A stretch of DNA of 53,438 nucleotides, the filler included, from Jimgerdemannia flammicorona (lineage: Eukaryota), in assembly GCA_003990765.1 (NCBI GenBank). It is 3 parts of 3 records of this genome, joined end to end, with 100 filler letters (N's around TTAATTAATTAA, not from the genome) between each part and the next. Parts side by side here need not be neighbours in the genome. Positions count along the whole stretch, not along the records: positions 17,848 to 35,594 come from RBNJ01002426.1; 2 more parts are not named here. One strand, 5' to 3'. Position numbers and translations under genes: made by a program. This document shows positions 1 through 35,159 of this stretch, in pieces. The notes under the pieces are model-generated. The model was not told where the DNA came from. It saw only the letters and a list, made by a program, of their open reading frames with translations, and searched no databases. Every line of letters begins with the position of its first letter. The first letter of the stretch is position 1.

Positions 1-863
1 CTGGTTGTCCTAGGTCGCTCAGATTTGTGGAGCTGACAAAACTCTTGTTGAGAAGAGTAAAGAAGGCTTCAATAAGACCTTCTTCATCTTGACTTGCTGG
101 GTGTAGTGCAAGGAGTTCAGTGAATAGGGTTTCACCTATTTGCTAGTTTAACTTGAGTACTTCTTTCTTTGAATGAAGTTTATCCCACTTGTTGCAGGTG
201 TGGAGGTCAAATTGTCCTTGTATGTCAGGTTCAATTCTCTCCAGATTGTCAGATGGTTCAGGATAAATTCCAGTTCAGAGATTGGGCTTTACACCAACTT
301 GTAGGAATTCGTAGAAGGGTTTGTAGCAGGGTGAGGAAGCGTCTTAAAGTGGAATTGGATTGTAAACCACTGCTACTAAGTTGTAAGAGGGTTGCTTTTT
401 TAGGGTAACCATTACGTAGTTCTAGAAAGGTTTTCTGGATATTCTGGATGTTCTGGAAGACCGTTTTCTTATGGTCAAGATCAATTTCATATGGAGTACA
501 TCCTCTATGCTTATTGATTTCAAGATTGGGTTGACGTCTCAACCAAAGTCCTTTTTCGGACTAGTTCTGGATGTTCAGGATTTTCCATATTTCAGGAAGT
601 TCAAGAAACTAAGACCAGCTTAGTTGAATTGGCGTATCGCTGCAGACAATACCCAATTAGGAAATTTCGTGACAGGGTTAGGAGTAGGACCTAACAGAGA
701 GCGGATTTACTTAAGAGTGGTTTGTGGGTTATGGAATAGGTTTATTTGCTATTCATGATATTGCTATACTAGGAGTATTTGTGTGAAGGGATATTGTGGG
801 GAAGTGCTCAGGAGTTGTGTTCGGATTGTTCAAGTCTGAGATTCTGAGGTCTGGGAGAGGGGG

Positions 864-871
864 TATTTATA
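864..871 (-). promoter_or_regulatory. Probable LTR TATA box (TATAAATA followed by a C-run)
   Basis: Present in all five GypA LTRs (e.g. 26223-26230) and as TATAAATACCCCCC in the GypB LTR (39788). Confidence 0.65.
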
Positions 872-1060
872 CTAGTGAGGGGCTATCTGGACTAGGCTAG
901 ATATGGATGTAGCACTAAGTGCTTTACTGAGTCGGAATGTAGTCACGTAGTACAAGTGTGATCTGACATGTCAAGAGATTGTCTGACTGCTGAGTCAGTT
1001 CACAGTCATATCATACAAGGCTAATCTATCTATACTATGACTGCTAGACTATTTATAGGT

Positions 1061-2293
1061 TTAGGCGCTGTCTGGGTAGTCCTCGATGATATCACCATCG
1101 ATTGTATCATCTCTGATGAAGTAGTCGTCTAGGAATAATGGTTTGCGGATTACTTCTCCTTGTTGGCTGAGGTAGTAATACATTGGAACTTCATCTCTGT
1201 CCCACAGGATAGCATCATCTGTTTCGTATACTGGATAAGGTGTTAGTGGGTGAAGGATGGGTGTATTGTCTTCGCTTTCATCGGATTCACTGTCTGTGTA
1301 CCTTCTATAGGTTACAGCACTATGAGTCACAGAGTTGTAGTAAGCTGGTGGCTATGGTTCATGTCGCTCGTACTCAGGTGGTGGGGTTGTTGGTTCGGTC
1401 TCTAGGGTTGTCTGAAGGTACAGGTTGTGTTCTCCAGTCTCTTCATTATAATTGAAGTAATCGGGGGTAAATGCGGGTTGGTATTTGTGCCAGTGGTCAT
1501 TGTCTCAATAAGTCTTGTATGTAGTTATGAACTGTTGTAAGTTCATCGGCAAGGTTGGCGGAGTGATCAGGGTTGGCAGAGATCCTTGGCTAGAGGTCAT
1601 GTCGGCATCAGAGGGATCATTGTCTTCTACTTCGTCTTCGTCAAAGTGGATTATATCATAGATATCCTTCATGGTGTATCCGACTTGAGGCATTTGCAGG
1701 ATATGGTCATCAGGGTGCAAGAAGGTTCTGTCTGTGGTCTGGACATATTCGAGGTACTTGCAGTTGAGTTCTTGTATCATATCATCGATTTGGCCATAGG
1801 ACAGGGTAGCAACCATTTCGCTGGTAGTGACTCAGAGGTGGGGAATAAAGGTGTTGTACTCATAGAAGAGTTCTTGATGTTTGCGGGTGATGAGCTTCTA
1901 GTGTTGAGACATCTGGGTAATATCTGTATCATGGTGGTGTTCAACCATGTCTTCCAGGAGGTGGCCGATCTGGTAGTAGCTTGAGATTTGTCCGATTCGG
2001 TGGGCCTCACTAAGCATGTTCAGGGCATTCCATCGGGCTTCCACAAAGTAAAGGGGTGCCAGGCTATGGATATTCATGAGGGGCAGAGGGGGTGTGGCTC
2101 GGTTGACAATGGCATTCCAAATGTCAGTGCAGATGCGGTTGTAGATCTCAGTGGTCATGTTTGTGTATTTGGAAGTTATGGTTGTTGTTTGTTTTAGTTC
2201 TCTGATTCGACGCGTCTCAGTACTCGGTATATATGCATTTAGTCCTGATTGGTAAGATTCTGTTTGTGTAAATCTTGTGTTCCGTGACTTCAT
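1061..2293 (-). pseudogene. LTR U3-encoded ORF of unknown function (410-codon consensus, acidic), copy 1 with four point-mutation stops
   Basis: ORF-track pieces 1898-2380, 1505-1816 and 1061-1330 share one frame. It runs MKSRN...MTTEIYN...YPDSA*. Confidence 0.8.
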
Positions 2294-2447
2294 ATTGACC
2301 CAGCTTTGTGTGCTGTGACTTTGGTTTGACTTAGCTTCATGATCAAGCAGGTGATTTCCAGATTTGTTCGGAGGTCGCATGTGATTTCAGTGGCTTTGTT
2401 CAGAGGGTGACGTGTAATTTTGGTGGCTTGGAGGTTGTGTGCTTACA

Positions 2448-9224: not shown

Positions 9225-11103
9225 TATAAGAGGATTACTTATTAGGGTAACCATTATGTAGTTCTGGAAGAGTTTTTTGGAAGTTCTAGATATTCTGGAA
9301 GACTGTTTTCTTAAGGTCAAGATCAATTTCATATAGAGTATATTCTCTATACTTATTGATTTCAAGATTGGGTTGATGTCTCAACTAAAGTTCTTTTTCA
9401 GACTAGTTCAGAATATTCAGGATTTTCTATATTTCAGAAAGTTCAAGAAACTAAGACCAGCTTAGTTGAATTAGCATATTGCTACAGATAATATCTAATT
9501 AGGAATTTTTGTGATAGAGTTAGAAGTGGGACCTAATAGAGAGCAGATTTACTTAAGAGTAGTTTGTTGATTATTAAATAGATTTATTTACTATTCATGA
9601 TATTGCTATATTAGGAGTAGTTGTATGAAGGGATATTGTGGGAAAGTATTCAGGAATATTCTTATATATTTGAGTCTGAGATTCTGAGGTCTGGGGGAGG
9701 GGGTATTTATACTAGTGAGGAGTTATCTGGACTATGCTGAATATAGATATAGTACTTAGTGCCTTGCTGAGTCAGAATACAGTTACATAGTATAAGTGTG
9801 ATCTGATATATCAAGAGATTGTCTGACTACTAAGTCAGTTTACAGTCATGTTGTATAAGGCTAATCTAACTATACTATGACTGCTAAGCTATCTATAGAT
9901 TTAAATGCTATCTGGGTAGTCTTTGATGATATCACCATTGATAGTATCATCTCTGATGAAGTAGTCATCTAAGAAGAGTTGTTTGTGGATTAATTCTCTC
10001 TGTTTGCTGAGGTAATAATACATTAGGACTTTATCACCATCCTACAGAATAGCATCATCTGTCTCATATGCTGGGTAAGGTATTAGTGGGTAGAGAAGGA
10101 GTGTATCATCTTCACTTTTATTGAATTCACTGTCAGTATACCTTCTATAGATAATGGTACTATGAGTTGTAGGGTTATAGTATGCTGGCAGTTATACTTT
10201 ATATCACTTATACTCAGGTAGTGGGGTTGTTGGTTCAATCTTGAGAGTTGTCTGAAGATATAGGTTGTATTCTCTTGTCTCTTCATTGTAGTTAAAGTAA
10301 TCAGGAGTAAATGTAGGTTGATACTCATACCAGTGGTCATTATTCCAATAGATCTCATAGATAGTTACAAACTGTTGTAAGTTCATTGGTAAGACTAGTG
10401 AGATAATCAGGATTGGTAGGGATTCTTGACTTGAGATTATGTCAGTATCAGAGAGATTGTTGTCTTCTGCTTTATCATCATTAAACCATTTGTAGGATAT
10501 GGTCATCAGGGTGCAAAAAGGTTCTGTCTATGGTCTGAATATACTCAATATACTTGTGGTTGAGTTCTTGTATCATGTTATTGATTTGGCCATAGGATAG
10601 AGTGGCAACCATTTTGGCAGTAGTAATACATATAGAGGTGAGGAATAAAGATGTTGTACTTGTAGAAGAGTTCTCAATATTTGCAGGCAATGAGTTTCTA
10701 GTGTTGAGACATCTGAGTAATGTCTATATCATGGTGGTGTTTGACCATATCTTCTAAGAGGTGGTCAATTTGGTAGTAGCTTGAGATTTGTCTGATTCAA
10801 TAGACCTCACTAAGCATGTTCAGGGTATTCCATCAGACTTCTATGAAGTAGAGGAGTACTAGGCTATAGATATTTATGAGGGGTAGAGGGAGTGTGGCTC
10901 AGTTAACAATAATATTCCAAATGTCAGTATGGATGTAGTTGTAGATCTCTGTGGTCATATTTGTATATATTTAGGATTTGGGGTTGTTTATTTTGGTTCT
11001 CTGTTTCAACATATCTTAGTGCTTAGTATATATGCATTTAGTCCTGATTGGTAAGATTCTGTTTATATAAATCTTATGTTTCATGACTTCATATTGACTC
11101 AGC
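9225..11103 (-). repeat. GypA 5' LTR of copy 2, truncated; contains a frameshifted U3 ORF copy (9901-11092)
   Basis: Homologous to 382-2300, with an internal deletion near 10485. A degenerate PBS lies at about 9210-9221. Confidence 0.85.
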
Positions 11104-12070
11104 TGGTACTCTCAAATGAATTGAATCAATTCAAATCAAATTAAATTGAGGGTGATTTAAATCAAATCAAATTGAGGATTTTTCAATTTGAATTGAGTTC
11201 AAATCGAATTGAGATCTGATTTGAAATGTTCAAATCGAATTGTAGTCCAATTCAATTCGAAAAAAAATTAGGTTTGTAATTGTTGTTAGCATATGATTTA
11301 TTTATTATTCATATATATACATATACAGTACTTGTGACATATTCCACTCACCCAACACATTCAGCACTTACAATACTCAGTATGCAGTATGTCTGGCCAT
11401 AGTAGCCAACTGACAGGAATTGTTATAAGGCCTTTTTCTCAAAGGTAGATCAGAAGTCAATGGGTTCAACTTCTGGCAAACTTTAGGGAGGGTACTACAA
11501 GTCTTTCCATATCTTCTGCAATTATAACAACTGATCCAAGGATGGTCTCTTAGCTTTGGAAGGGGCTGGAGTAATGACTGGGGCTGGGGTGATGATGACT
11601 GGGGCTGGGGGGACTGGGGTGATGACTGGGGCTAGGGTGATGACCAGGGCTGGGGCAATGACTAGAGCTAGGGTGATGACTGGGGCTGGGGCGACAACTG
11701 GGGCTAAAGGGGCTGGGGTGACAATTGGGGCTAGGGGGGCTGAGGCAGCAGGAAGTATTGGGGCAATAGCTAAAAAGAATTGCTCAATTACTTTAGTAAG
11801 TATTTTCTTCTTTTTTCTATGTTCTTCTTGAGTAACATAGATTCCATCAGTCACTGCCCAAGTATATATCTTATCAATGGTATAGTTCATGTTTTCAAAA
11901 TGATTTGAGAGGTAGTTGAGATAAGTTTGAATATACATTTTGTTTTTATTTTTATTAAAGATGGCAGCTTAGACAGCTTATTATACATTTTTAATACTAG
12001 GCCAACAAGTGATCCCTGAGAGCTTCATAAGCAAGCCCCAAGCTTTGAATATGGCTTATAATATTCAAAG
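11104..12070. mobile_element. One end of a hAT-like TIR element with AATCGAATT-type subterminal repeats and a repeat-rich gene remnant
   Basis: Begins TGGTACTCTCAAATGAAT, a decayed match to the TAGTGCTC..AACGAATC termini at 34503, 50626 and 51188. Interrupted at 12071 by GypA copy 3. Confidence 0.55.
11340..11938 (-). pseudogene. Unknown gene with Pro/Ala-rich PAPVIT repeats inside the TIR element
   Basis: ORF 11522-11938 continues through stops to LQKIWKD...VGYYGQT. Similar C-terminal sequence occurs at about 34830-34990. Confidence 0.5.
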
Positions 12071-14134
12071 TATAAGAGGGTTACTTTTTTAGGGTAGCCG
12101 TTACATAGTTTTAGAAGGGTTTTCTGGAAGTTCTGAAAATTCTGGAAGACTGTTTTCTTATGGTCAAGATCAATTTCATATGGAGTACGTCCTCTATGCT
12201 TATTGATTTTAAGATCGGGTTGATGTCTCAACCAAAGTCCTTTTTCGGACTAGTTCTGGATATTTAGGAGTTTCCATATTTCAGGAAGTTCAAGAAACTA
12301 AGACTAGCTTAGTTGAATCGGCATATTGCTGCAGACAATACCCAATTAGGAAATTTCATGATGAGGTTAGGAGTGGGACCTAATGGAGTAGATTTACTTA
12401 AGAGTGGTTGTGGGTTATTTGAATGGGTATATTTGCTATTTATGATATTGTCATACTAGGAGTAGTTGTGTGAAGGGATATTGTGGAGAAATATTCAGGA
12501 ATGTTCTTGTGTGTTGTTCAAGTCTGAGATTCTGAGGTCTGGGGGAGGGGATATTTATACTAGTGAGGGGCTATCTGGACTATACTAGATATGGATGTAG
12601 CACTAAGTGCTTTGCTGAGTCAGAATACAGTCATGTAGTACAAGTGTGATCTGACATATCAAGAGATCATCTGACTGCTGAGTTAGTTCACAGTCATGTT
12701 GTATAAGGCTAATCTAACTATACTATGACTGCTAGGCTATTTATGAGTTTAGGTGCTGTCTGGGTAGTCCTCGATGACATCACCATTGATTGCATCATCT
12801 CTGATGAAGTAGTCATCTAGGAAGAGTGGTTCGTGGATTACTTCTCCTTGTTCGCTGAGGTAATAATATATTGGAACTTCATCTCCATCCTACAAGATGG
12901 CATCATCGGTCTCATATGCTAGGTAAGGTGTTGGTGGGTGAAGGAGGGGTGCATTATCTTCACCTTCATTGGATTTGCTGTCTGCATACCTTCTGTAGGT
13001 TACAGCACTATGAGTCGCGGGATTGTAATAAGCTGGCAGCTGTAGTTCATGTCACTTATACTCAGATGGTGGAGTGGTTGGTTCAATCTTGAGGGTTGTC
13101 TGGAGGTACAGGTTGTGTTCACTGATCTCTTCATTGTAGTTGAAGTAATCGGGGATGAATGTGGGTTGGTATTCATACCAGTGGTCATTGTCCCAATAAG
13201 TCTCATATGCTGTTATGAATTGTTGTAAATTCATTGGCAAGGTTGGCAGTGTGATCAGGGTTGGCAGAGATTCTTGGCTAGAGGTCATGTCGGTATCAGA
13301 GGGATCATTGTCTTCTACTTCGTCTTCATCAAAGTGGATTATATTGTAGATATCTTTCATGGCATATCCAACTTGGGGCATCTGCAGGATATGATCATTG
13401 GGGTGTGGGAAGGTTCTGTCTGTGGTTTCGATGTACTCGAGGTACTTGTGGTTGAGTTCTTGTATCATATCATTGATTTGGCCATAGGACAGGGTAGTAA
13501 CCATTTCAGCTGTAGTAACTTGGAGGTGGGGAATAATGGTGCTATACTTGTAGAAGAGTTCTTGATGTTTGCGGGCGATGAGCTTCTAGTATTGAGACAT
13601 CTGGATAATGTCTGTATCCTGGTGGTATTCAATCATGTCTTCCGGGAGGCGGCCGATCTGATAGTAGCTTGAGATTTGTCTGATTCGGTAGGCCTCACTA
13701 AGCATGTTCAGAGCATTCCATTGGGCTTCCATGAAGTAGAGGGGTACCAGGCTATGGATATTCATGAGGGGCAGAGGGGGTGTGGCTCCATTGATAATAG
13801 CATTCCAAATATCAGCATGAATATGGGTATAGATCTCAGTGGTCATGTTTGTGTGTTTGGAAGTTATAGTTATTGTTTGTTTTGGTTCTCTGATTCGATG
13901 CGTCTTGGTGCTCAGTATATATGCATTTGATCCTGATTGGTAAGATTCTGTTTGTGTAAATCTTATATTCTGTGACTTCATATTGACTCAGCTTTGTGCA
14001 CTATGACTTTGGTTTGACTCAGCTTCATGATCAAGCAGGTGATTTCCAGATTTATTCAGAGGTTGTATATGATTTCAGTGGCTTGTTCAGAGGGTGACAT
14101 GTAATTTCAGTGGCTTGGAGGTTGTGCACTTACA
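12071..14134 (-). repeat. GypA 3' LTR of copy 3 (2064 bp)
   Basis: Starts TGTAAG directly after the PPT and ends CTTATA (mutated CTTACA), where homology stops abruptly. Confidence 0.92.
12749..13981 (-). pseudogene. U3-encoded ORF, copy in the 3' LTR of copy 3
   Basis: 1233 nt in a single frame. ORF-track pieces are 13586-13981 and 13052-13504. Confidence 0.8.
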
Positions 14135-17847: not shown

Positions 17848-19513
17848 GTTGTGTGAAGGGTATTGTGGGGGAGTATTCAGGAATGTTCTTGTGTATTTGA
17901 GTCTGGGATTCTGAGGTCTGGGGGAGGGGGTATTTATACTAGTGAGGGGCTATCTGGACTATGCTAGATATGGATATAGCATTAAGTGCTTTGCTGAGTC
18001 AGAATGCAGTCACGTAGTACAAGTGTGATCTGACATATCAAGAGATCATCTGACTGCTGAGTCAGTTCACAGTCACGTCGTACAAGGCTAATCTAACTAT
18101 ACTATGACTGCTAGGCTATTTATGGGTTTAGGCACTGTCTGGATAGTCTTTGATGACATCACCATTGATTGCATCATCTCTGATGAAGTAGTCATCTAGG
18201 AATAATGGTTCACGGATTACTTCTCCTTGTTTGCTGAGGTAATAGTATATTGGAACTTTGTCTCCATCCCACAAGATGACATCATCAGTCTCATATGCTG
18301 GATAAGATGTTGGTGGGCGAAGGAGGGGTACATCATTTTCACTTTTGTCGGATTCACTGTCTGCATACCTTCTATAGGTTATGGCACTGTGAGTTGCAGG
18401 GTTATAGTATGCTGGCGGCTGTGGTTCATATCGCTCGTACTCTGGTGGTAGAGTGGTTGGTTCGATCTCAAGGGTTGTCTGGAGGTACAGATTGTGTTCT
18501 CTGGTCTCTTTATTGTAGTTGAAGTAATTGGGGGTGAATGCAGGTTGGTATTCGTGCCAGTGGTCATTGTTCCAATAAGTCTCATATGCAGTTATGAACT
18601 GTTGTAAGTTCATCGGCAAGGTTGGTGGTGTGACCAGGATTGGCAGAGATCCTTGGCTAGAGGTCATGTCGGTGTCTTAGGGATCATTGTCTTCTGCTTC
18701 ATTTTCATTGAAGTGGATTATATCGTAGATGTCCTTCATGGCATATTCAACTTGGGGCATTTGCAGGATGTGATCATTGGGGTGGGGGAAGGTTCTGTCT
18801 GTGGTTTCGATGTACTCAAGATACTTCTGGTTGAGTTCTTGTATCATTTCATCGATTTGGCCATAGGATAAGGTAGCAACCATTTTGCTGGTAGTAACTC
18901 AGAGGTGGGGAATAATGGTGCTATACTCATAGAAGAGTTCTCAATGTTTGCGGGTGATGAGCTTCTGGTGTTGAGACATCTGGATAATGTCTGTATCATA
19001 GTGGTATTTGACCATGTCTTCCAGGAGGCGGCCGATCTGGTAGTAGCTTGAAATTTGTCTGATTCGGTGGGTCTCACTAAGTATGTTCAGAGCATTCCAT
19101 CAGGCTTCCACGAAGTAGAGGGGTGCTAGGCTATGGATATTCATAAGGGGCAGAGGGGGTGTGGCTCGGTTGACAATGGCATTCCAAATGTCAGCACGGA
19201 TATGGTTGTAGATCTCGGTGGTCATGTTTGTGTGTTTGGAAGTTGTGGTTGTTGTTTGTTTTGGTTCTCTGATTCGACGTGTCTCGATGCTCGGTATATA
19301 TGCATTTAGTCCTGATTGGTAAGATTCTGTTTGTGTAAACCATGTATTCTGTAACTTCATATTGACTCAGCTTTGTGCGCTGTGACTTTGGTTTGACTCA
19401 GCTTTGTGATCGAGCAGGTGATTTCCAGATTTGTTCAGAGCTCGCGTGTGATTTCAGTGGCTTGTTCAGAGGGTGACGTGTAATTTCGGTGGCTTGGAGG
19501 TTGTGTGCTTACA
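17848..19513 (-). repeat. GypA 3' LTR of copy 4 (cut by the contig end)
   Basis: Starts TGTAAG at 19513 after the PPT and matches the 5' LTR. Confidence 0.92.
18128..19360 (-). pseudogene. U3-encoded ORF, copy in the 3' LTR of copy 4
   Basis: 1233 nt in one frame. The C-terminal 179 aa are open (18128-18667). Confidence 0.8.
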
Positions 19514-19527
19514 ACTCTCCCCTTCTT
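19514..19527 (-). other. Polypurine tract
   Basis: AAGAAGGGGAGAGT is adjacent to the 3' LTR. Confidence 0.9.
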
Positions 19528-19669
19528 AGGTTTTGACATCCTCATCGGGACCTTCTAATTTTGTTCTGCTGAGTTCTTGGTTTGGATTGCGATAATTATA
19601 ATGTTCAGGAGGATAATATATAGTGTGTACTGATAGGTACGGAGTATTTGGTTCTAGTTGTTCAAGGAA

Positions 19670-19825
19670 TCATATTCCTGAAATAGGTTGGTAGCATTCT
19701 GGAGATTGGTCTTTGGTTCCCAGGTTACATCGTGGATCGGGTAACCTTTCCATTTGACAAGGTACTCAGGGTGGCTCTTGTTGCCACATTTGTTGAGGAT
19801 TTGTTCAACTTTATACTCTTCTTGG
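19670..19825 (-). other. Integrase C-terminal chromodomain
   Basis: EEYKVEQILNK...EYLVKWKGYPIHDVTWEPKTNL. Confidence 0.85.
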
Positions 19826-22800
19826 TCATTAATGATGACAGGTGCAGGTGGTTTGGTGATCTGATTTGGAAATAGCTTGTTATCATTGTCATTATATCAC
19901 TTGAGACATTGAACATTAAAGACTGGGTGAATCTTAATGGTGTCCAGTAGTGCCAGTTTGTAGGAGGTTGGAGAGACTTGTGCAATGACTTCGAATGGTC
20001 CGATGAACTTGCTGTTCAGCTTTGTAGATGGTCTGTGCTTGAGGTTGTCAACTCATTATCCTCTGATGTCTAGTAGGACATTTTCTCCAATATCAAAAGT
20101 TTCTTCTCGGCAGTGTTGGTTAATATACTGTGATTGTTGTTCTTGAGCTCGTGATAAATTCTCGATGGCAATCTGGCTTAAATTGCACATTCGGAGTAAG
20201 AATTCTTCAACAGCTTCGACTGTGGAGGGTTCTTCAGTGGTTCGGATGAGTGTCAAAGGGGTGTTTGGATTTTGTCCAGTGTTGGCGAAGAATGGGGTCA
20301 TTCCAAGAGAGGCTTGCTTGCTATTGTTATAAGCAAACTCGACTGCAGTAAGGTATTCGTGCCAATCATCTTGTCTATAGGAAACATAGTTCCTTAGCAT
20401 TTGTTCCAGAGTTCAGTTCATTCTTTCAGTTTGGCCATCAGTTTCTGGGTGAAAGGCTGTGGATAGTGCAAGTTTTGTTCCAAGGTGTGCATGGAGGGCT
20501 TTCCAAAAGTAGCTGGTGAATTTCGGATCTCAGTCACTAATAATGATCTTAGGAAGACTATGATAGTGGAAGATGTTGTCAAACAAGAGTGTGGCTATGT
20601 CTGGTGCTGTTGTAGTAGTGGTAGTAGGCACAAAGTGGACTTGTTTGCTGAGATAGTCTATAAAGACAACAATTGCATCTTTCCCATTCTTGGTTCAGGG
20701 TAGTTGTACAATGAAGTCCATAGAGATTTGTTCCCAATTTGTGGATGGTACTGGGATAGAGTGGAGTAAGCTGGGTTTTGCTAGTGTTGAGGACTTGTTT
20801 CGTTGGCAGGCATCACAGGAAGTGATGTAGGTTTTGAGCTGATCTGCTATGCGGGGCCAATAGAAGTTCCAGGAGATAACTTCATAGCATTTGTCAAATC
20901 CTAAATGTCCAGCTGTAGGGGCATCATGACATTCGAATAGGATAGTCCTTCGGAGGTCTCGGTTGTTTGGAACATACAGTCTGTCCTTGTAGTAGATAGT
21001 CTTATCCTTGAGTTGGTATTGGTTGTACCAGGTATGCTTGTCAGCATCATCACTGTTCAGGATTTCTTGGAGTGCTTGAGCTTCCTTATCATCAATACAT
21101 GCTGCAATGATTTGTTCCATGATAGTGTTGGTAACCAAGGTCAGAGTTTGGATAACCTCTTCGATTGGTGGTCTGGAGATTGCATTGGCAACAATATTTT
21201 CTTTGCCAGAGTGATACTGGATTTCATAGTCAAAGTTAGTGAGGACTTTCATCCATCTGGCTTGCTTTCAGGAAAGGGTAGCCTGTGTCTTGATATTGAC
21301 TAATGACTTGTGGTCAGTCAATATAGTGAAGTGTGCTCCTTCTAGATATGGTCACCATTTGATCAGAGTGTCTATGATGGCTAGCATTTCCTTCTCATGA
21401 GTTGCATAGTTGATTTCAGCATCATTGAAATTGTGGGAGTGATAGGCCACAGGGTGTCCTTCTTGCATGAGCACTGCTCCAAGAGCTAGGTCAGAGGCAT
21501 CAGTAGTGACTTTATATGGTAGGGCAGGGTTTGCCGCTTGAAGTACTGGTGTGGTTATCAGGGCATCTTTTAGCGCTTGGAAGGCGGTATCTTGTTCGGG
21601 TCCCCAATTTACAAGATTGTTGAAGTCTTTCTCTTATTTCATGGTCCAGGGTTGTTCTTGTTTCTTGTTGTACTTGGTCATTTGAGTGAGGGCTGTAGCG
21701 ATTTTAGCAAAGTTGGCAACAAATCGCCTGTAATAGTTTGCTAATCCCAGGAATGACTGGAGGTCTTTCAGCTTCTTCGGTCTGGGCCAATCTTTGATTG
21801 CAGAGATTTTGCTGGGGTCTACTTTGATTCCATTCGGAGTGACAATGTGTCCAAGGAATTGAATTTCTTTCAGAAGAAATTCGCACTTGCTGAGTTTGCA
21901 AAAAGTCGGGTTTCTTGGAGTTTCAGTAGTACTAGTTCAAGGTGTTCAAGATTTTCCTCCAGGGTTTTGCTGAAGACTAGGATGTCATCAATGTAGACAA
22001 CAACAAATTTGTCCAGGTATGGGTGCAGAATAGTATTCATCAGTGTCTGGAAGGTTGCTGGGGCATTAGTTAAGCCAAAGGGCATAACTAGGAACTCAAA
22101 GTGTCCATAGCGAGTTTGGAAAGCTGTCTTGTAGATGTCTTCTTCTTTCATGGCAATTTGCCAGTAACTATTTCGCAGGTCAAAAGAGCTCATGAATTGT
22201 GGGTTGGTGAGTCTATTGAATATTTCATCAATCCTCAGTAGTGGGCAACAGTTCTTGATGGTCTGTTCATTGAGATCATGGTAGTCAATGCACATTCGCC
22301 GGTCTCCTCCTTTCTTGACAATGAAGAGGACTGGTGCACCATAGGGTAATACACTGGGTCTGATGAATCCTTATTCTAGGAGTTTGTCGATTTCCTTCTT
22401 GAGTGTATCAATTTCTCTTGGAGACATGTGGTAGATTGACTTGAAGGCTGGTTTGGCATCTGGGATAGTCTCGATGGCGTGGTCTACTGCTCGTTTGGGA
22501 GGTAGGCCTTTTGGGAGCTTCTTTGGGAATATATCTCAGAATTTCTGGAGTAGTGGTCTGACATGGCTGTCAACTTTGGAAAAATCTTCTTCAGAGTTCT
22601 CGGATTCTCCTTTGGATGGACGGATGGGGATGGCGAAGAGAGGGCATTTCTTGGCCAATTTCTTGAGTTGTAGCTTATTGATGTGGGTGATCTTTGGTCC
22701 AGGGTCACTAGAATTGAGTGAGTCCTTTTTGCCCTGTATTTTGAAGTTATGGCGTCCTTTCTTGATGGTCAGAGAATGGTTTACCCAATCAATCATGGGG

Positions 22801-23309
22801 TTCTCTTGTTTTAACCATGGAGTCCCAAGGATGATTTCATTGTCAGGAAGTGGTATGATTTGGAGGGTAACATGTACTCGGTAGTCGCTAATTCGGAAGG
22901 GTAGATTGCAGACTTCTTTGCTAATAACATGTGAGGTTCCATCAGCTGTAGCAACTGCTTGAGTTTGCTGTACTGGAGAGGTGAAGACCTTGAGTCTGTT
23001 GGCTGTCTCTTCATTGATGAAGTTGCCTGAGGCACTACTGTCTATCATAATCTTGACAGGTGCTCTGTTGACAAAAGCCTTAAGGGTGAGCAGTTTGTCT
23101 GATCCAATGGTGGTGATTTCAGTTGTAGGAGCCTTTCTTCTGTTGATTCTTCTTTGAGCCAGTTCATTGACACAAGAGAAGCAATTATCAATCATTCAGG
23201 AAGAGTACATTCCAATACCATGAGGGCATCGGCCACTTGGTACATATCCATCTTCGATCTTCTTGTAGAATTGTTCTTCTTTGCTCATGGTAGGTTGGGA
23301 TGGGGCTTT

Positions 23310-23720
23310 GTTTGATGAGCCAAATCCTTTAGATCCTCGGATGGTGGGTAGTAGTTCAGGGACTTCCTTGACTGTCAGGGTTGACTCGATCTTTTCAAAT
23401 AGGATCTGGGCAATGCAGAAACTAATAGGGATCTTGAAGGGTGTCCAACTGTGGTTTCGGATGAGGATAATAATTTCGCCTGTATAATCCTCGTCAATGA
23501 CTCCTCCTTCTACTGAGAGTCCTTTCAATGCTAGGCTACTGCGACAGCATATTCTTCCAACATGTCCTTCAGGGATTTGGATACTGATTCCTGTATAGAC
23601 ATGTTTGACTTCTCGGTTGGAAACTGTAGCTTCTTCGGCTGCATACAGGTCATATCCAGCTGCTTTTTGACTTTCTTTGGTTGGGGCCTTAGCAGTTTGT
23701 CTTATCTTGACAAAGTCTAG
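23310..23720 (-). pseudogene. dut: dUTPase domain between the Gag zinc knuckle and protease
   Basis: All five trimeric dUTPase motifs are present: AAGYDL, RSSLA, GGVIDEDYTGEI, IAQIL and RGSKGFGSS. Confidence 0.93.
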
Positions 23721-25729
23721 TATTCTGGTGGTCAGGTTGTTGAGATGGTGCAGAGTGGTAACAGTTGCTCATATTGCTGTTCGGGGTTTTCAGTTGGGGC
23801 AGGCACTGGCCATGTGTCCTGTCTTTCGGCAATAGAAGCATGCTCTACTTCTTCAAAGTTCATTCCTTTCGCCTTCAGTAAGTTTCTTGAAGGTACTGGG
23901 CTGGGTGGGTTCAGGATTTCTGGGTGTCCAAGAGGTGGATGTGGAGAGAGCTTGGGATGCTTCATGCTTGGGTTCTTCTTTCTTGGTCCAAGTCTTTTCC
24001 TTATTGTTAAATTATCTTCGGGGCAGAATTGGTCCTGCTGTTAGGATTCGCTTGACCATGGTCTTGATTCTTGCCAGACACCATTGTTGGTGATCACAAC
24101 CAACTGGGCAGCCTTGTTCTTGGATTTTCCTAGTAAGCCATTCAGGCAGGGCATCGAATAAATGGTCTGCTCTTGTACCATTTCATGCTTCATCATTGGC
24201 AATGTATCCTAGGCCAACAGTGTTCAGGAGTGACTCGAGTTTTGTACAGAAGGTTTCGAATTCTTCTTTGCCATGTATATCAAATTTTTGGTTGCGCAGT
24301 TTTACTCGAGATTTGGCAATCATGGTTTTGCTGCAGTATTGAGCAATCATGAGTTGTTTGAGTCCAGGGGCTGCAGGATGGGCTCCATATCCTGGGGTAT
24401 TGTTTGCTGCATTCTGAGCAACTACTGCAGATCAGGTATCCCATGTGAGGGGTTTTTCAGGAAGGGTTTGCCACCATTCTTTGGCAGGTCCTCGGAAGAA
24501 TGTAACAACTCGACAGACATAGGCTGTAGTTGTAGCAAAGAGTTGTTCCAGAGTGTGGTCTTGATTGTTTATCAGAACACGATCAGCAACTCGCTCATTG
24601 GTCCATTGATTGGCTTTGAAGTTGGTGTCAACTACACTAATGAAACTTTGGACTTCTTGTGCAGTACCATTGAAGGTAGGTAGGCTCAGATTTTTGGTAG
24701 GTCGAGTCTGTTCAGCTAAGGCAGTAATAGTTGCTACCATTATGACTACCTGGGCTGTAAGGTCTAGAATCTGTTGGTTTGCCATGTTGTTTACTGGAGG
24801 TAGTTGGACTACTGGTAGTAGTGTTACAGGTACTACTTGAGATACTGGTGCAGAGTGTGATGGGGTTCTTTGGGTCTGTGTAAGTTGCTGGAGTAGTAGT
24901 TGTAGATCTGAAGTGAGGGCTTGATATGTAGATAACTGTTTGTTGCTGTGTAGGTGTATTCTGTCCTGATGGAGGTACTTCTCCTTCAGTGGTATATCTG
25001 GAATCAAATTCACTAAGATACTCCTCCTCTTCTTCGGTTTGGTCCCCATATAATTGGGTTTGCTCGGCATCAAAGTAGACAGAATCAGTTATATATCTGA
25101 TTTCAGATGGACTTAACTCAAAGTCAAGTTCAGGTTTGGTATTGGTTTCAGATTCAGGTAGGGCTGTGGCAGGGCCTGCTTCAGGTTTGGGGTCAGGTAG
25201 TTGATGAAGGGTTTCTCTTGCTTCTTCTTTAAGGATATGGCAGGCCTTGCTGTTCTGGAATTGGTAGTATAAGGTGGTCTTGGTCCTGGTGCGGTGAAAG
25301 TCAGTAGAGTTGAGCTACTTGGCTACAGAGGCTTGGGCTTCATGAGGAACTAAGGACTGCTGCTGGTTGTCCTAGGTCACTCAGATTTGTGGAGCTGACA
25401 AAACTCTTATTGAGAAGAGTAAAGAAGGCTTCAATAAGACCTTCTTCATCTTAACTTTCTGGGTGTAGTGCAAGGAGTTCAGTGAATAGGGTTTCACCTA
25501 TTTGCTGGTTTAACCGGAGTACTTTTTTTTTTGAATGAAGTTTATCCCACTTGTTGCAGGTGTGGAGGTCAAATTGTTCTTGTACATCAGGTTCAATTCT
25601 CTCCAGATTGTCAGATAGTTCAGGATAAATTCCAGTTCAGAGGTTGGGCTTTATACCAACTTGTAGGAATTCTCAGAAGGGTTTATAGTGGGGTGAGGAA
25701 GCATCTTGAAGCGGAATTGGATATTAAAC

Positions 25730-25740
25730 CGCTGCTACCA
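25730..25740 (-). other. Primer binding site, initiator tRNA-Met type
   Basis: TGGTAGCAGCG lies 3 nt after the LTR end and is complementary to a tRNA 3' end CGCUGCUACCA. Confidence 0.75.
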
Positions 25741-25743
25741 AGT

Positions 25744-27805
25744 TGTAAGAGGGTTGCTTTTTAGGGTAACCGTTACATAGTTCTGGAAAGGTTTTCAGGA
25801 TATTCTGGATGTTCTGAAAGACCGTTTTCTTATGGTCAAGATCAATTTCGTATGGAGTACATCCTCTACGCTTATTGATTTCTGGATCAGATTGACATCT
25901 CAACCAAAGTCCTTTTTTGGACTAGTTCTAGATATTCAGGATTTTTCATATTTCAGGAAGTTCAAGAAACTAAGACCAGCTTAGTTGAATTGGCATATCG
26001 CTGCAGACAATACCCAATTAGGAAATTTCGTGACAGGGTTAGGAGTGGGATCTAACAGAGAGCGGATTTACTTTAGAGTGGTTTGAGAGTTATTAAATAG
26101 GTTTAATTGCTATTCATGATATTGCTATACTAGGAGTAGTTGTATAAAGGGATATTGTGGGGGAGTATTCAGGAATGTTCTTGTATGTTCGAGTCTAGGA
26201 TTCTGAGGTCTGGGGGAGGGGGTATTTATACTAGTGAGGGACTATCTGGACTATGCTAGATATGGATGTAGCACTAAGTGCTTTGCTGAGTCGGAATGCA
26301 GTCACGTAGTACAAGTGTGATCTGACATGTCAAGAGATCATCTGACTGCTGAGTCAGTTCACAGTCACATCGTACAAGGCTAATCTAACTATACTATGAC
26401 TGCTAGGCTATTTATGGATTTAGGTGCTGTCTGGATAGTCTTTGATAACATCACTATCAATTGTATCATCTCTGATGAAGTAGTTGTCTAGGAATAATGG
26501 TTTGCGGATTACTTCTCCTTATTCGCTGAGGTAATAGTATATTGGAACTTCATCTCCATCCCACAAGATGGCATCATCAGTCTCATATGCTGGATAAGGT
26601 GTTGGTGGGTGAAGGAGGGGTGCATCATTTTCACTTTCGTCAAATTCACTGTCTGCATATCTTCTATAGGTTACAGCACTGTGAGTTGCAGGGTTATAGT
26701 ATGCTGGCAGCTGTGGTTCATGTCACTCGTACTCTGGTGGTGGAGTGGTTGGTTCAATCTCAAGGGTTGTCTGGAGGTACAGGTTGTATTCTCCGGTCTC
26801 TTCATTGTAGTTGAAGTAATTAGGGGTGAATGCAGGTTGGTATTCGTGCCAGTGGTCATTGTCCCAATAAGTCTCATATGCAGTTATGAACTGTTGTAAG
26901 TTCATTGGCAAGATTGGTGGTGTGACCAGGGTCGGCAGAGATCCTTGGCTAGAGGTCATGTCAGTGTCAGAGGGATCATTGTCTTCTGCTTCATCTTCAT
27001 CGAAGTGGATTATATCATAGATGTCCTTCATGGCATATTCAACTTGGGGCATTTGCAGGATGTGATCATTGGGGTGGGGAAAGGTTCTGTCTGTGGTTTC
27101 GATGTACTCGAGGTACTTCTGGTTGAGTTCTTGTATCATGTCATCGATTTGGCCATAGGACAGGGTAGCAACCATTTCACTGGTAGTAACTTGGAGGTGA
27201 GGAATAATGGTGCTATACTCATAGAAGAGTTCTCGATGTTTGCAGGCAATGAGCTTCTGGTGTTGAGACATCTGAGTAATGTCTGTATCATAGTGGTGTT
27301 CGACCATGTCTTCCAGGAGGCAGCTGATCTGATAGTAGCTTGAGATTTGTCCGATTTGGTGGACCTTGCTAAGCATGTTCAGAGCATTCCATCAGGCTTC
27401 CATGAAGTAGAGGGATGCTAGGCTATGGATATTCATGAGGGGTAGAGGGGGTGTGGCTCGGTTGACAATGGCATTCCAAATGTCAGCACAGATATAGTTG
27501 TAGATCTCGGTGGTCATATTTGTGTGTTTGGAAGTTGTGGTTGTTGTTTGTTTTGGTTCTCTGATTCGACGCATCTCGGTGCTCGGTATATATGCATTTG
27601 GTCCTGATTGGTAAGATTCTGTTTGTGTAAACCTTGTGTTCTCTGACTTCATATTGACTTAGCTTTGTATGCTGTGACTTCGGTTTGACTCAGCTTCGTG
27701 ATCAAGCAGGTGATTTCCAGGTTTGTTCAGAGGTCACATGTGATTTCAGTGGCTTGTTCAGAGGGTGATGTGTAATTTCGGTGGCTTGGAGGTTGTGCGC
27801 TTACA
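25744..27805 (-). repeat. GypA 5' LTR of copy 4 (2062 bp)
   Basis: TGTAAG...CTTACA termini, followed by the PBS. Confidence 0.95.
26420..27652 (-). pseudogene. U3-encoded ORF, copy in the 5' LTR of copy 4
   Basis: 1233 nt in one frame. The central 217 aa are open (26723-27376). Confidence 0.8.
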
Positions 27806-30464
27806 GCTGCCCTCCCCAGATCCATGATCTCACCATCTTCAACAGCCCCTTGACCACCCAGGTTGGGAAATCCAAATGATATCCCACATACCACAACTTC
27901 AGCATCCAATACACATTCAGCACCATTACCCTTCCAGCTATTGACATATGCTGACCTCCCCATTGCAGCAGAACATTTCCCCACTCCAGAAGTTTTTGGT
28001 CCCACCATGCCTGGGGAAGAAGAGATCCAAATACTGCGAAGTAGATCTCCAAATAATGCACTGGTTCCCTAGCCAGCACCACCATCCCAATGACATCACT
28101 ACTAACAATTCCAGCACCCAGCACCAGAGTCTTGCATTTGTGCCAGTTTAGTTTAGCACCAGAACCCCTCTCATACCATTCCACAGACCTCCATAACTCC
28201 CCCACATCCACCAAGGAGCCCAGCCCGACCACCATATCATCAGCAAAGGCCCCCACCTACCAATTAATCCCAAAAATGTCCAAACCCACCAATCGGACAC
28301 TGAATTCTGTCCAGTAGGGGCTCCAGGGAAAGGGCATACAATATGGGCAACAAGGGGTCCCCTTGCGGTACCCCACATCCCAGGGGAAAGGTCACCTCCC
28401 TGTGGCCATTGATGACCAATGCTGCCTGACTGTCCTCCAAGAGGCTGATCAATGATTCTCAGAACTCTGGGGGGATACCAATCTGTCTCAGCACTCCCTC
28501 CAGCCATATCCTCCATACTCTATCATACCAGAAGAAGTATTATAACCATAAGACTGACTCTGAACCTCTATAACTAGTTTAGTATACTGTACTATTATAA
28601 AAGAAAACCAAAAGTACCAAACTCAAACCAAGACAAGTAAGTCTTCTCTTGGTCCAGAAACACCAATCTGCCATCCACCCCTATCGCCCGGGCCCCTTCA
28701 ATCACTCCATGTATCCAAGCTGTCCCATCTTGAATCAACTGATCATCGACAAACCCACACTACTTTACACCAAGCACCTGCTGAGCAATTCCTTACAGTC
28801 TCATCACCAAGATCTTCATCACCAGTTTTCGGTCCATGTCGAGAAGCATGATTGGCCACCAGTTCTTCCAGTCCTCTTGCCTTCCCTTATTCTTGTAGAG
28901 CAAGGAGACAAGCCCTAAGTGCTGTCCCCCAATCCAAGCATCAGACCAAAGAACTCCATCACATATAGCAGTCATTTCCTCTAGCACCTCGCCCACCCCA
29001 GCCATCTTCTGCCAAAAATCCTAGGGAAGTCCATCCTCTCCCAGAGCTGTCCCCTTACTCGTCGAGACCATAACCCTGCGAATTTCCTTGCCATTCACTG
29101 GGTCCCCCAATGCCCCAAGACCCATCGCAGAGTCTGGATACCAATCCTCCAGCTGCCTTTCAACATCCAGAGCATCCATTCCTCCTTCCTTCTCACTCCA
29201 TAGATTCCCCCATCTGGCTCTCAATAGGTCCAGAATAGCTGGAGTCCATACCACCAGCTTGCCATTCGCATCCAGAACTCCCTCCCACCACTGCCTCGTT
29301 TGTCATGTCTGTAACAACTATGACAAAAACCTAGTAGGCCTCTCCCCCTCCTCAAGTCTCTGCCACCACAGTCGGGCCACCATTCCCTGTAACTTCACCT
29401 CCTCCTCCCTTTGTAAAACTCCTTTAAGCTCCTCTACCTCCTGCCAGATTCTCACAATATGTCAATCAGTCATGTCCCCATCTTCCAGCACACCTGCCCA
29501 TCTCTGAGTGCTGCCAGATGCTGCGAGGCTCACAGCACCCTCTACCTTCACTGGGCACACTTTCCTTTCCCAGCTTCCCTCTAATATCCCTGAGCATTTG
29601 CCTTCAGCCTTCTCCAGTGGTCTCCAATCTCAAGGCCTTATTCCTGCCACCTATCGATATTTCCAACCACCTCCATTTCCCAATTCTCCCACAACCCCCT
29701 ATCTACCAACAAGGAAGAATTTAGCTACCAATGTCCAGGCCCATCCTCATTACCCCCAAACCTCCAACCTCCAAGCAGCCCCCAGTGATCCGACCACTGA
29801 CACCAAATGACTTCCAGCACCGACCAGACATCTGCTCCCCAACACTCCACTGTCAAAACCCAGTCAATCCTAGAGCCCAGCCCTGCTGCCCAGTGGGTGT
29901 ACACCCACTGATCGGCCCAAAAATATCTTTCCGAGTCCACTAAAGAACTCAACCTCTCTGTCTCCAACCAGTCACCCAACCCACCACTTTTGCCCCACAC
30001 ACCTCTCCCTCCATCTGTTCTATCCATCTCCTTATCCCATACCATGTTGAAGTCACCCCCCATATAGTCCAGTCCAACTTCTCCCAATACACTAGCCTTG
30101 TTCAATCTGCGAATCCAATCCACCCTCTCCCCTCTCTCAACTGGACAGTAGCAAGACCCAACTGTCAATGAGCCCCATCCAGGTCTCTTCCACACACCCC
30201 ACACCACCTGAGACCCCCAATGTCCAATGTCCTCAATGTCCCCCATCCCTTTCTGAACGAGAATACACACTCTCCCCCTCCATACTGCTGCACCCCCCCA
30301 TTCCTTAGTCCAATCCTGTAAGTCCACATCTGCCTCTAACAAACATCCTGTAATAAGAAGAGGTCCACATCCAGTCCCTTAAACCATCCAAATATATACT
30401 TCCTCCTAGCTGCCCCCCGTAACCCATTAACGTTCAATAAGAATATCCTAGTTGTACTGTTCAT
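27806..30464 (-). pseudogene. LINE ORF2 (APE endonuclease and reverse transcriptase)
   Basis: NVNGL, LLQD, GGDFN, SRIDW, SDHW, GEDGL, NWWPIMLL, FLDQEK..YDRV, GVPQGDPL and AFADD motifs; frameshifted. Confidence 0.9.
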
Positions 30465-30495
30465 ATTGAAAAAATATTGCAATAGGGACCCCATC

Positions 30496-32454
30496 CTAGA
30501 ATTCCATGCTCATCTCATTCCCAGCCAGATCCAAATGCTGTTCAGCTTCCAAGTCATCCTCTGCATTAGCCTGAGCATCCAGTGCCTCTAAGATTTCCTG
30601 ACATTCTACCCCATCCACTACCTCCAATCTGACCAATAATCCAAGCAGACTGCGCACCACTTCTCTAGTCCCTTCCTCGAGTTCCACAAGAATAGTATTC
30701 TGTCACTCACAATCCTTCTAAGTTCCTCCTCCCTCTGATCATTGACTTGATATTCAACCGACTCCAAGAGAACAGCTAGGATCTCATTCCTCACCTTTCT
30801 CAGCACCTCCTCTCCCCATAAGATCTCCTCCCAATGCCTTTCTTCCATCACCCTGAAATTCTCACCCCCCAGCTCTTCAGCTGCTACCCTTTCCAGGGTC
30901 TTCCACATCCACTTCTCCTCATCTACCACCTTTGCTGTACCCTGAGCGATTTGTCCCCTGTCCACCTCAGGGTCCACCAGCATGCTCCTCTGCACTGACT
31001 CATTCCACTCCTCATCCAGCACATCTAGCAGCTCCTCCTCTCCCTCAGCTCTTTTTTTTTATTTTTTTTTTTTTTATAGTACCTCTCCCTCAGCTCCACC
31101 TGGGACACTATACTGGGGGTGCACACCTTCGCCCATATCTGCATCTGCCTCCATACTGCCTACCCTCTCCACCTCCACTCCCAGCTGAGCCCCACTCTGG
31201 GCCCTATCACACCCCTCAGCCCAGGCACTTTCCTGCAATCCTGCCCCCCTCTCCCCTGAGCTTCCACTGGCCCTACCCCCACCCAACCTCGCCAGCAGTT
31301 TCTTCTGGATTTTCCACCCCTGCAACTTCTCCCAGGCCCTCTTCTCTATTCGAACCCTCTTCCCATCCACCTCCCCCACCACTATCCTGGCCTCAAACTC
31401 CTTCCATGCCAATCTCCTCCTTGCGACTGCCCCTTCCAGATCCTCCAGAGCCTCCAACAGGTCTTCCTCCTCCTCCTGGGTCCCCTTCACCCTCGTGACC
31501 TTGTACTCCACTGGTCCCCACCTCAGCATCGCTGGCCAGTCCCTTGACTTCCCTGTACTCTCCCTCTCAGCCAGCCTCACCCTGACATTGACATCACCAG
31601 TCCGAAGCTCTGAACCCTCCCAGACCTTGAACCCAATATCCACAATCTCTCCATACTCCCTGATTGCCTCCACAACCAACTCCCTGGTCCTCTCCTTCAA
31701 CACTGTAGGGAGATCCAGCACTGTCAACTGCACCACTCAGGGGTCCCAGCACATGTATCTGGCCATAGGGACAACAACTCCACCAACCATCACCCTCTCT
31801 TCAAGGCTGCCAGCAAGGCATCTTCTTCCTCGAACCCCACCTCGACCCCTTCCTTTCCCTTCAAAAGCTTCACCAAAACTGCTCCCTTTGCCTCCTACAC
31901 CACCAGCCCCAAAATCATCCTTGCCATCACTGCTAAGCCCCGGAAACACATCATGACTGTGAATTCTGACCTCAACTTCTTAAGTAATGGGGCCGACACC
32001 ATGCCCATAACCCCATCTGCCAGGTCCCCAGGCCTCATGCCCACTTCCCATCCTGAATTATCAACTGCCATCACATTTGGATTTTTTGCCAGATCCCCAG
32101 TTACAGCTCCATCACCAGTCACATCTCCAGCCCCTACTCCTGCCCCTCCCCCCCCTCAGCAACTCCCCTGTGTACACCTCCCAGTCCCCCAGCAGCAGCT
32201 GTCGATGCCTTTCCCAGGCCCAGCCAACCATCTAGACCTGAGGCTATCTTCTCTATTCTGACCTTGTCAGCAAAGGTCAACCTCTCCCCTTTTCTCTGCC
32301 TCAGACCGCCCCTCCCTCCACCACTAGGACCTTGGCTAGCCATTGAGGCCCCCAGCATCCCCAAACCATCTCCCCTCCTTCCCACCTGCTGCCAGCCAAA
32401 GGCGCCGTCTCCCCCCTGGCCAGTACACTCACCAGTTCGATCATTGCCATCCAT
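30496..32454 (-). pseudogene. LINE ORF1 (RRM-like core and acidic coiled-coil-like C-terminus)
   Basis: LTFADKV...LPTVLKERTRELVVEAIREYGEIVDIGFKVWEG; homologous to 35726-36940. Confidence 0.7.
31052..31081 (-). mobile_element. Minimal poly(A) retro-insertion with a 15-bp TSD
   Basis: CCTCTCCCTCAGCTC at 31037-31051 and 31082-31096 flanks TACTAT plus poly(A) on the minus strand. Confidence 0.85.
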
Positions 32455-35150: not shown

Positions 35151-35159
35151 CCAACTTCA

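Follow-up and report, generated by a model that had tools for sequence, protein, structure and literature searches.

The long terminal repeats (LTRs) of a chromovirus from Jimgerdemannia flammicorona (GCA_003990765.1) were analysed in a DNA stretch of 53,438 nt, made of three joined records and called the window here; its positions 17,848-35,594 come from RBNJ01002426.1. The repeats carry a minus-strand, element-sense reading frame that is very probably the remains of a real ancestral protein-coding gene inside the LTR. The explanation favoured as a whole, with a probability of about 0.7, is that of a decayed accessory gene lying wholly within the LTR of a fungal chromovirus that also bears a dUTPase. 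Retrotransposon LTRs count as regulatory DNA and nothing more, and are masked by annotation pipelines; a selected gene in such a repeat would extend the retroviral way of housing an accessory gene, as in sag of mouse mammary tumour virus (MMTV), to a fungal Ty3/gypsy element.

The reading frame and its decay

One long repeat occurs in five copies (A to E), all on the minus strand in the left half of the window, and the open reading frame (ORF) was found in five of the five. In copies A (1061-2293), C (12749-13981), D (18128-19360) and E (26420-27652) the frame measures exactly 1233 nt, from an ATG (MKS...) to a TAA (...YPDSA/T*), and the four copies are separated by zero indels. Translation reproduced these four gap-free frames, coordinates included, as they were described in an initial annotation of this DNA. 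The fifth, frameshifted copy listed there (B, 9901-11092) was recovered as four pieces matching in different frames, with a 1-nt deletion, a 4-nt insertion and a 44-nt deletion. The ORF starts inside the LTR, past the polypurine tract and the terminal TGTAAG, and is also present in the 5' LTRs A, B and E; the earlier statement that it is duplicated with every LTR is in accordance with all five copies of the window. Contigs of the family in runs X1 and X2 cover the ORF as well.

The frame of each copy is interrupted by three or four internal stops, which fall at codons 132, 154, 263 and 314 in copy A, 132, 310 and 364 in copy C, 87, 140, 154 and 228 in copy D, and 87, 310 and 378 in copy E. These 14 stops occupy 10 positions, four of which are found in two copies each. 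No stop is common to all four copies, and nine of the ten positions are single transitions from CGA, CAG, CAA or TGG, both in line with the earlier description; codon 228 differs by two transversions. At four of the positions a CGA codon has become TGA as well as CAA, depending on the copy, the sign of a CpG hot spot. The frame contains 4-5 stops with the terminal one included; the remaining five frames of this stretch have 8-38.

The decay was further characterised over copies A, C, D and E (26140-27805 and equivalents). Transitions dominate it, and of 200 private changes within the ORF 141 were C>T or G>A. The rate of C>T depended on the 3' neighbour in the order CpG (0.161), CpA (0.076), CpC (0.053) and CpT (0.018). 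The decay therefore looks more like methyl-CpG deamination with some preference for CpA than like classic, CpA-only repeat-induced point mutation. The stop codons of copy E were not among the differing places listed for X1 and X2 (40 of 371).

Coding constraint, public relatives and the protein

The distribution of variable sites over the codon positions was analysed for the four copies and gave 89, 50 and 122 sites at positions 1, 2 and 3. A test on private changes was then based on rates estimated from the same data by base change and CpG context, with CpG transitions at 0.53-0.58 per site and about 0.21-0.22 for the remaining C>T or G>A changes. The private changes comprised 83 non-synonymous, 75 synonymous and 4 stop changes, for expected shares of 0.626, 0.323 and 0.05. 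The resulting omega-like ratio of non-synonymous to synonymous changes was 0.55, with a synonymous excess at p=1.5e-4 under the CpG-aware spectrum. The same procedure gave 0.73-1.58 in five control frames, among which the antisense frame (0.73) alone reached p=0.03; its wobble position is taken to coincide with that of the ORF. Split by copy, the ratio came to 0.41 for A (p=3.6e-4), 0.64 for C, 0.69 for D and 0.72 for E, and the values of D and E were not significant, as would be expected if these two copies diverged only after insertion.

Pairwise maximum-likelihood ratios of non-synonymous to synonymous substitution rates (dN/dS) lay at 0.28-0.49 for pairs between elements and at 0.72 for D and E, which belong to one element, while shifted frames gave 0.84-1.70. 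A value near 1 between divergent subfamilies had been named in the initial annotation as speaking against its reading; between elements of the window no such value was found. The integrase-chromodomain region of elements 1 and 2, used as positive control, showed a dN/dS of 0.42 (1.08-1.74 in shifted frames) and a stop load of 8-11 per 554 codons, compared to 3-4 per 410 codons for the LTR ORF. The LTR frame thus carries a mark of past constraint like that of the element's own integrase, and its decay has gone no further. Gap columns told the same frame apart from its surroundings: the pairs among A, C and E had 3-7 in the roughly 477 nt between TATA box and LTR end and 0-1 in the 165 nt before the ATG, and every pair had 0 within the 1233-nt ORF; copy D is cut in the TATA-to-end part. 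The sense-strand composition of the ORF (A.343, C.278, G.164, T.215) is equal to that of pol (.343/.262/.160/.236), which argues for a long residence in the element. The claim of an intact ancestor is supported, as is evolution of the ORF under purifying selection.

The search for homologues covered 5.8 billion clustered proteins as well as 1.84 billion representatives, and only two relatives, P0005 and P0006, came up. The candidate tallies were one match among 856, one among 37 shorter candidates, and three at E <= 0.001 in the 1.84 billion representatives; the third match, P0007 (E 8.6e-5), is a repetitive, unrelated protein and was discarded. P0005 has 247 aa, covers residues 160-409 at 62-65% identity to the window copies, and is stop-free with two in-frame gaps of 2 residues. 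P0006, labelled 'hypothetical protein' at its source, has 128 aa, begins with MTTEIY (Met46) and is stop-free at 77-90% identity to the window copies. When neutral evolution to 65% protein identity was simulated with the measured spectrum, a mean of 5.5 stops per 251 codons accumulated and only 3 of 1000 runs stayed stop-free. Scans of metagenome_contigs and viral_contigs revealed no relatives at the DNA level.

The product has a pI of 4.35 and consists of 16.5% Asp+Glu, 5.2% Lys+Arg, 8.4% Tyr, 7.9% Pro and 9.8% Thr, in agreement with its earlier description as acidic and rich in Tyr and Pro. It has no hydrophobic segment, the maximum Kyte-Doolittle mean over 19 residues being 0.78. The blocks that P0005 retains are of aromatic and acidic character (LQQFIT.YETYW, YQPAFTPDYFNYNE, DDA.LW and PLF.D.YFIRDD). 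A PPxY motif (PPPEY) present in A, D and E was dropped, as it is kept neither in copy C nor in P0005.

Candidate promoters, place within the LTR and rival explanations

The start of the coding part was examined by the same codon-position analysis. Codons 1-45 varied as 5/11/7, which is no coding pattern, whereas codons 46-410 varied as 84/39/115. Since P0006 also starts at Met46, the gene probably begins there (MTTEIY...) and runs to the TAA as a coding sequence of 365 codons (26420..27517, minus strand). The product of 410 aa that had been proposed stands as a frame from M1 to TAA, and its length is to be shortened to a probable 365 aa. A candidate promoter for the ORF lies at 27587..27611 (minus strand), where a CCAAT (27611-27607) and a TATATA (27592-27587) precede the ATG of Met46, the distance from the latter being 70 nt. 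Both elements are present in all five copies, and the CCAAT sits in the longest run invariant across them (23 nt from 27624). In copies A, C and D no ATG occurs between TATATA and Met46. This conservation and the free path to Met46 make a promoter of the ORF's own possible, and it is put forward tentatively, at somewhat less than even odds. Fungal introns are short; a retrovirus-like splice over about 6 kb to the 3' LTR is therefore unlikely, which favours such a promoter.

The position within the LTR was judged from the TATAAATA box (26223..26230, minus strand), which is present in all five copies and is presumed to be the promoter of the genomic RNA. This box lies 190 nt 3' of the ORF stop (TAA 26422-26420), and the ORF starts 153 nt (M1) or 288 nt (Met46) into the LTR. 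The 197 nt from the ORF to the box have diverged less than any other part of the LTR (3.5-9.6%). In run X20, guessed to be RNA, the summed contig depth was 1215-4158 over 26226-25834, compared to 14.5 and 11.1 in the two bins just 5' of 26226; it was 0 over 27012-26489, 0.5-9 over 27798-27013 and 0 across the internal region, and one contig spans 26457-26199 and ends there. If X20 is RNA, this profile fits a strong start about 30 nt past TATAAATA and polyadenylation about 100 nt before the LTR end, and the presumed R region extends from just past the TATA box to near the LTR end (25834..26226, minus strand). As the box lies 3' of the ORF and the step in X20, if RNA, comes just past the box, the ORF is probably located in U3. 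The initial annotation had placed it entirely inside U3; its position inside the LTR and 5' of TATAAATA was observed, and U3 in the strict sense rests on the TATA box and the presumed RNA.

Two side observations concern the read depth of the LTR. X20, if RNA, suggests an abundant short LTR transcript with start and polyadenylation both within the LTR. In X1, a soil metagenome, depth on 24000-27900 was about 960-2400 over the promoter and R-U5, compared to about 490-1270 over the ORF and about 400-1070 over the internal region; this roughly twofold gap in summed depth may reflect ORF-less LTR variants or sister families, or a more diverged ORF part.

An inverted repeat brackets the ORF, a feature absent from the initial annotation. 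Its upstream arm (27659..27694, minus strand, 36 nt) holds TGAGTCA and ends 7 nt 5' of the M1 ATG, and its downstream arm (26348..26383, minus strand), 37 nt past the stop, is the first of two direct modules 5' of the TATAAATA box. The second direct copy (26284..26326, minus strand) is 74% identical over 43 nt to 26347-26389. The arms are complementary at 28 of 36 positions, a value reached in 0 of 200 shuffles (highest 25). A module of about 36-43 nt with TGAGTCA/TGACTCA is thus seen in three copies, two direct ones 5' of the TATA box and an inverted one 5' of the ORF; the TGA(C/G)TCA in the arms is presumably an AP-1/Gcn4 site. Because the arms resemble the tandem module before the TATA box, they are read as a reused upstream activating module rather than transposon ends, a reading drawn from sequence likeness; they could also be the scar of the ORF's arrival. 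No compensatory changes between the arms were found in copies A and C, and a structural RNA stem formed by the repeat was accordingly left unsupported. The outer ends of the arms showed no target-site duplication, and the flanks outside them differ. Further 5' in LTR copy E, a motif of about 32 nt is present in two and a half copies (about 27788-27720, minus strand).

In the favoured explanation, reverse transcription would place one copy of the gene at each end of a new insertion, because the gene lies in the LTR. Purifying selection would have kept the gene intact while the family transposed, and all five copies of the window would have decayed later, for the most part through C-to-T and G-to-A changes. 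From Met46 (365 aa), the coding part would lie 5' of the TATAAATA box that drives the genomic RNA, and hence in U3. The gene may be transcribed from its own CCAAT/TATATA promoter, fed by the inverted AP-1/Gcn4-like module, and may use the LTR's own poly(A) site, each LTR then being a self-contained gene. With less confidence, the acidic, Tyr/Pro-rich and largely disordered protein is suggested to act in trans on the expression or life cycle of the element; this suggestion is derived from the features of the protein and from accessory proteins such as Cer1 CERV. The most plausible form of such an action would be that of an acidic activator or co-factor, an activator-like role being given odds of only about one in four, and the transactivator or anti-silencing role is a guess. 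The fullest form of the proposal, in which every LTR is a complete gene (module, CCAAT/TATATA, 365-codon ORF and poly(A) site) expressing a trans-acting regulator coupled to copy number, whether activator or brake, is likewise considered unlikely, at around one chance in four. If it were true, 3' LTRs and any solo LTRs would express the protein too, and its dose would follow how many LTRs the genome contains, a self-sufficient arrangement that is not known to have been described for LTR retrotransposons. Placement in the LTR doubles the gene dose per insertion, and it would give possible coding capacity to solo LTRs, which are usually seen as inert scars.

Several results weigh against the favoured explanation. 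Every copy in the window is broken, and a full-length intact copy was seen nowhere. The stop at codon 87 is common to D and E, so that element 2 may derive from an already defective parent, or a CpG site may have been hit twice. The selection tests rest on four copies with majority-rule polarity, and the omega of 0.55 blends pre-insertion constraint with post-insertion decay. Both public homologues are fragments, and they are subject to ascertainment bias as gene callers report open frames; yet the search among shorter proteins gave P0006 alone. That run X20 is RNA is only a guess, and transcript ends are not something that contigs can show. The CCAAT/TATATA region has 6-7 variable sites per 40 nt, compared to 3-16 in the ORF, and so shows no extra conservation. 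The structure prediction and profile comparison proposed in the initial annotation did not return a fold, family or structure match. AlphaFold2 with a six-row alignment gave a mean pLDDT of 29.6 and a pTM of 0.26 with no confident fold, only low-confidence helices in residues 48-215 and little structure beyond; the Atlas model of P0005 had a mean pLDDT of 0.39. Pfam yielded no match at E up to 1 besides a sub-threshold DUF5338, and a profile search of the PDB a chance match only (E 0.45). No relatives were found in the Atlas, where P0005 reached TM <= 0.30 and P0006 gave low-recognition feature matches to mixed families. The protein contains no DNA-binding or other diagnostic motif, and its proposed function is a conjecture.

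The rival explanations differ in how much of the gene they retain. The gene could be real and lie in the LTR, and yet be part of R as a 5' leader, the CCAAT/TATATA driving a genomic RNA with an R of about 1.7 kb in which the ORF is the first cistron. This would account for the conserved CCAAT-TATATA 70 nt before Met46 with no intervening ATG in A, C and D, it would permit direct translation without splicing, and a passage of PMC3485330 gives a proposed R of 2023 bp, a very long one, for Retrosat2. The LTR is most conserved where the canonical TATAAATA box stands with its two upstream modules, which speaks against such an R, as does the rise of X20 depth, if RNA, from 14.5 to 2183-4158 just past TATAAATA with only 0-11 over the ORF; gag would moreover become a downstream cistron. 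A location in R is accordingly judged improbable, with odds of about one in five, and U3 is preferred.

The ORF might instead be a passenger of no service to the element. An ancestral LTR of about 715 bp would in that case have received either a host gene or a small transposon with inverted repeats. The significant 36-nt inverted repeat around the ORF agrees with an insertion, as do the ordinary size of the LTR left when 26348-27694 is removed and the orphan nature of the protein. Neutral evolution would then be expected, and it is contradicted by the between-element dN/dS of 0.28-0.49, equal to the integrase control, and by a relative still open at 65% identity. The composition equals that of pol, and the ORF is present in 5/5 copies, whereas transduced genes typically occur in one or few copies, as a portion of PMC7264820 states. 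An unrelated transposable element inserted in the LTR with its own target-site duplication had been named by the initial annotation as a finding that would overturn its reading; Pfam revealed no transposase or known transposable-element protein in the ORF, and no target-site duplication was seen at the outer arm ends. The arms also resemble the resident promoter module, repeated nearby in direct orientation, and show no compensatory changes. A mere passenger is therefore very unlikely, although capture may have been the original route by which the gene arrived. The simplest alternative, with no gene at all, would make the long frame a by-product of a T-poor, A/C-rich sense strand, and fewer stops are indeed expected at 21.5% T and 16.4% G. 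The other two sense frames have the same composition and contain 14-38 stops, the codon-position bias and the synonymous excess are specific to the ORF frame, indels are absent, and divergent homologues stay open, which renders this explanation hardly credible.

Known accessory genes, the host element and its neighbourhood

The decayed LTR gene was compared with known systems, and it is to be classed with the accessory ORFs of LTR retroelements, its place and its host being unusual. Its closest analogue by architecture would be MMTV sag, and by kinship it belongs to no known family. Sag is a sense ORF inside the U3 of the LTR and is present in both LTRs of the provirus; the ORF described here is likewise a sense frame inside the LTR, and its place in U3 is probable. 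Sag is a type II membrane protein. The two share no sequence relation (no Pfam-A match), the present product lacks a hydrophobic segment, and the host element is a fungal Ty3/gypsy retrotransposon rather than a vertebrate retrovirus. Lentiviral nef and foamy-virus bel/bet are accessory genes at the 3' end that overlap U3; they differ in that they start in the internal region, only overlap U3, belong to vertebrate retroviruses and have no similarity to the ORF. An exact-phrase search of the literature, which is no proof of absence, found no precedent for an ORF inside the LTR of an LTR retrotransposon, only MMTV and other retroviruses, the remaining papers of note being on additional ORFs located elsewhere than in the LTR.

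The additional ORFs (aORFs) of plant and fungal LTR retrotransposons provide a wider frame of comparison. Examples given in parts of PMC7264820, PMC3485330 and 10.1101/2021.04.13.439636 are the env-like ORFs of Athila and Bagy2, gene23 of Grande, those of RIRE2 and Retand, brtn of Boty and ORF0 of Retrosat2. According to these passages, such ORFs are family-wide additions to gag-pol and mostly orphans of unknown function, as is the LTR ORF. Its occurrence in 5/5 window copies is likewise unlike a one-off transduction. It differs from the aORFs in lying within the LTR, 5' LTRs included, and not internally, downstream of pol but ahead of the 3' LTR. Retrosat2 ORF0, placed upstream of gag-pol in the relevant passage of PMC3485330, is a parallel from rice, with its ORF0 upstream of gag, for the first cistron required by a location in R. 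The extra gene brtn of Boty (10.1101/2021.04.13.439636, in part) stands among the antisense examples in the section seen of PMC7264820. Some fungal chromoviruses have an 'add. ORF' of unknown function marked in a figure legend of PMC2864245, and passages of PMC3248453 make no mention of an LTR ORF. As to what such a protein can do, CERV of Cer1, a Ty3/gypsy element of C. elegans, is described in an excerpt of PMC10309623 as an orphan accessory protein encoded 3' of pol that acts in trans on the element's RNA. CERV is thus similar as an orphan accessory protein of a Ty3/gypsy element, and differs since the present ORF lies in the LTR, splicing is unlikely here and the sequences show no similarity.

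The host is a chromovirus, i.e. a Ty3/gypsy LTR retrotransposon with a chromodomain, since its internal region encodes reverse transcriptase (RT), RNase H and an integrase with a C-terminal chromodomain. This assignment and the LTR length of about 2 kb had been made from the sequence alone, and both agree with the Pfam matches to protease, RT, RNase H, integrase and C-terminal chromodomain and with the 2062 bp measured for copy E. The internal region of element 2 (19511..25743, minus strand) contains a gag-like region, dUTPase, protease, RT, RNase H and integrase with chromodomain, together with many stops. The Pfam matches were dUTPase (1.3e-34), RVP_2 (2.1e-11), RVT_1 (3.2e-27), RT_RNaseH_2 (3.3e-28) and, at the integrase end, Integrase_H2C2 (5e-20) and Chromo (3.9e-15). 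They place the pol order as protease, RT, RNase H and integrase on the minus strand from 23195 to 19523. The integrase consists of an H2C2 finger, the core (rve), an SH3 domain (SH3_Tf2-1) and the C-terminal chromodomain, PF00385 following rve and SH3_Tf2-1 with E 3.9e-15 in element 2 and 4.4e-13 in element 1.

The dUTPase (PF00692, E 1.3e-34) lies 5' of the protease at 23196-23768 (minus strand) and also occurs at 6689-7063 (minus strand). Such a domain is known from some basidiomycete and Tuber elements; the fungal chromoviruses with a dUTPase in passages of PMC2864245 are PosPlaTy3 of Postia placenta and elements of Phanerochaete chrysosporium and Tuber melanosporum. The present element shares with the PosPlaTy3 type a chromodomain integrase and a dUTPase in the polyprotein, the dUTPase being here 5' of the protease; an LTR-internal ORF is not described for those elements in the same passages. 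The LTR ORF and the dUTPase would be two additions of retroviral kind in one family, which offers a tractable case for the role of accessory proteins in intracellular retroelements. At about 48-50 kb on the plus strand, another gypsy element, a distant relative of the first, also has a dUTPase (48378-48716, plus strand).

The LTR copies are direct repeats with TG...CA ends (TGTAAG...CTTACA). Copy E (25744..27805, minus strand), the 5' LTR of element 2, was delimited from its sequence (TGTAAG...CTTACA) and its alignment with A-D, and is 81-93% identical to the other copies by BLAST. The primer-binding site (PBS) TGGTAGCAG lies 3 nt past its end (25732..25740, minus strand); TGGTAGCAG or a one-mismatch variant, followed by a leader, stands 3 nt 3' of copies A, B and E. 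Copy A (382..2447, minus strand) is a 5' LTR whose PBS and leader run past the window start. Copy B (9225..11104, minus strand) is degenerate and cut at its 5' end. Copy C (12071..14131, minus strand) is the 3' LTR of element 1, which is cut at the contig end, and copy D (17848..19510, minus strand) is the 3' LTR of element 2; the polypurine tract AAGAAGGGGAGAG directly precedes both. None of the five copies was shown to be a solo LTR, as A, B and E continue into PBS and leader and C and D follow a polypurine tract. Copy D is cut by an N-run with the linker TTAATTAATTAA at 17748-17847. This linker is enclosed by paired 44-N runs at 17748-17847 and 35595-35694, which we take to be joins of separately assembled contigs whose flanks need not be genomic neighbours; D and E thus lie on one contig as the LTR pair of a single element. 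The window does not include both outer ends of any element. It also contains one GypB-like copy, GypB being the sister family named in the initial annotation.

Other parts of the window showed features of their own. Adjoining LTR copy E, the stretch at about 28000-32600 (minus strand) is C-rich, with a GC content of 45-55% and a strong negative GC skew, and includes a match to the endonuclease/exonuclease/phosphatase family PF03372 (E 1.3e-5) at 29728-30378; it is probably a decayed LINE-like element. Positions 33000-35000 have 21-23% G+C, compared to 33-55% in the other bins of the window. The regions 40523-40798 and 46191-46457 are short and internally repetitive and match each other in inverted orientation at 75-83% over about 130-215 nt at several offsets; they may be LTR parts of other elements.

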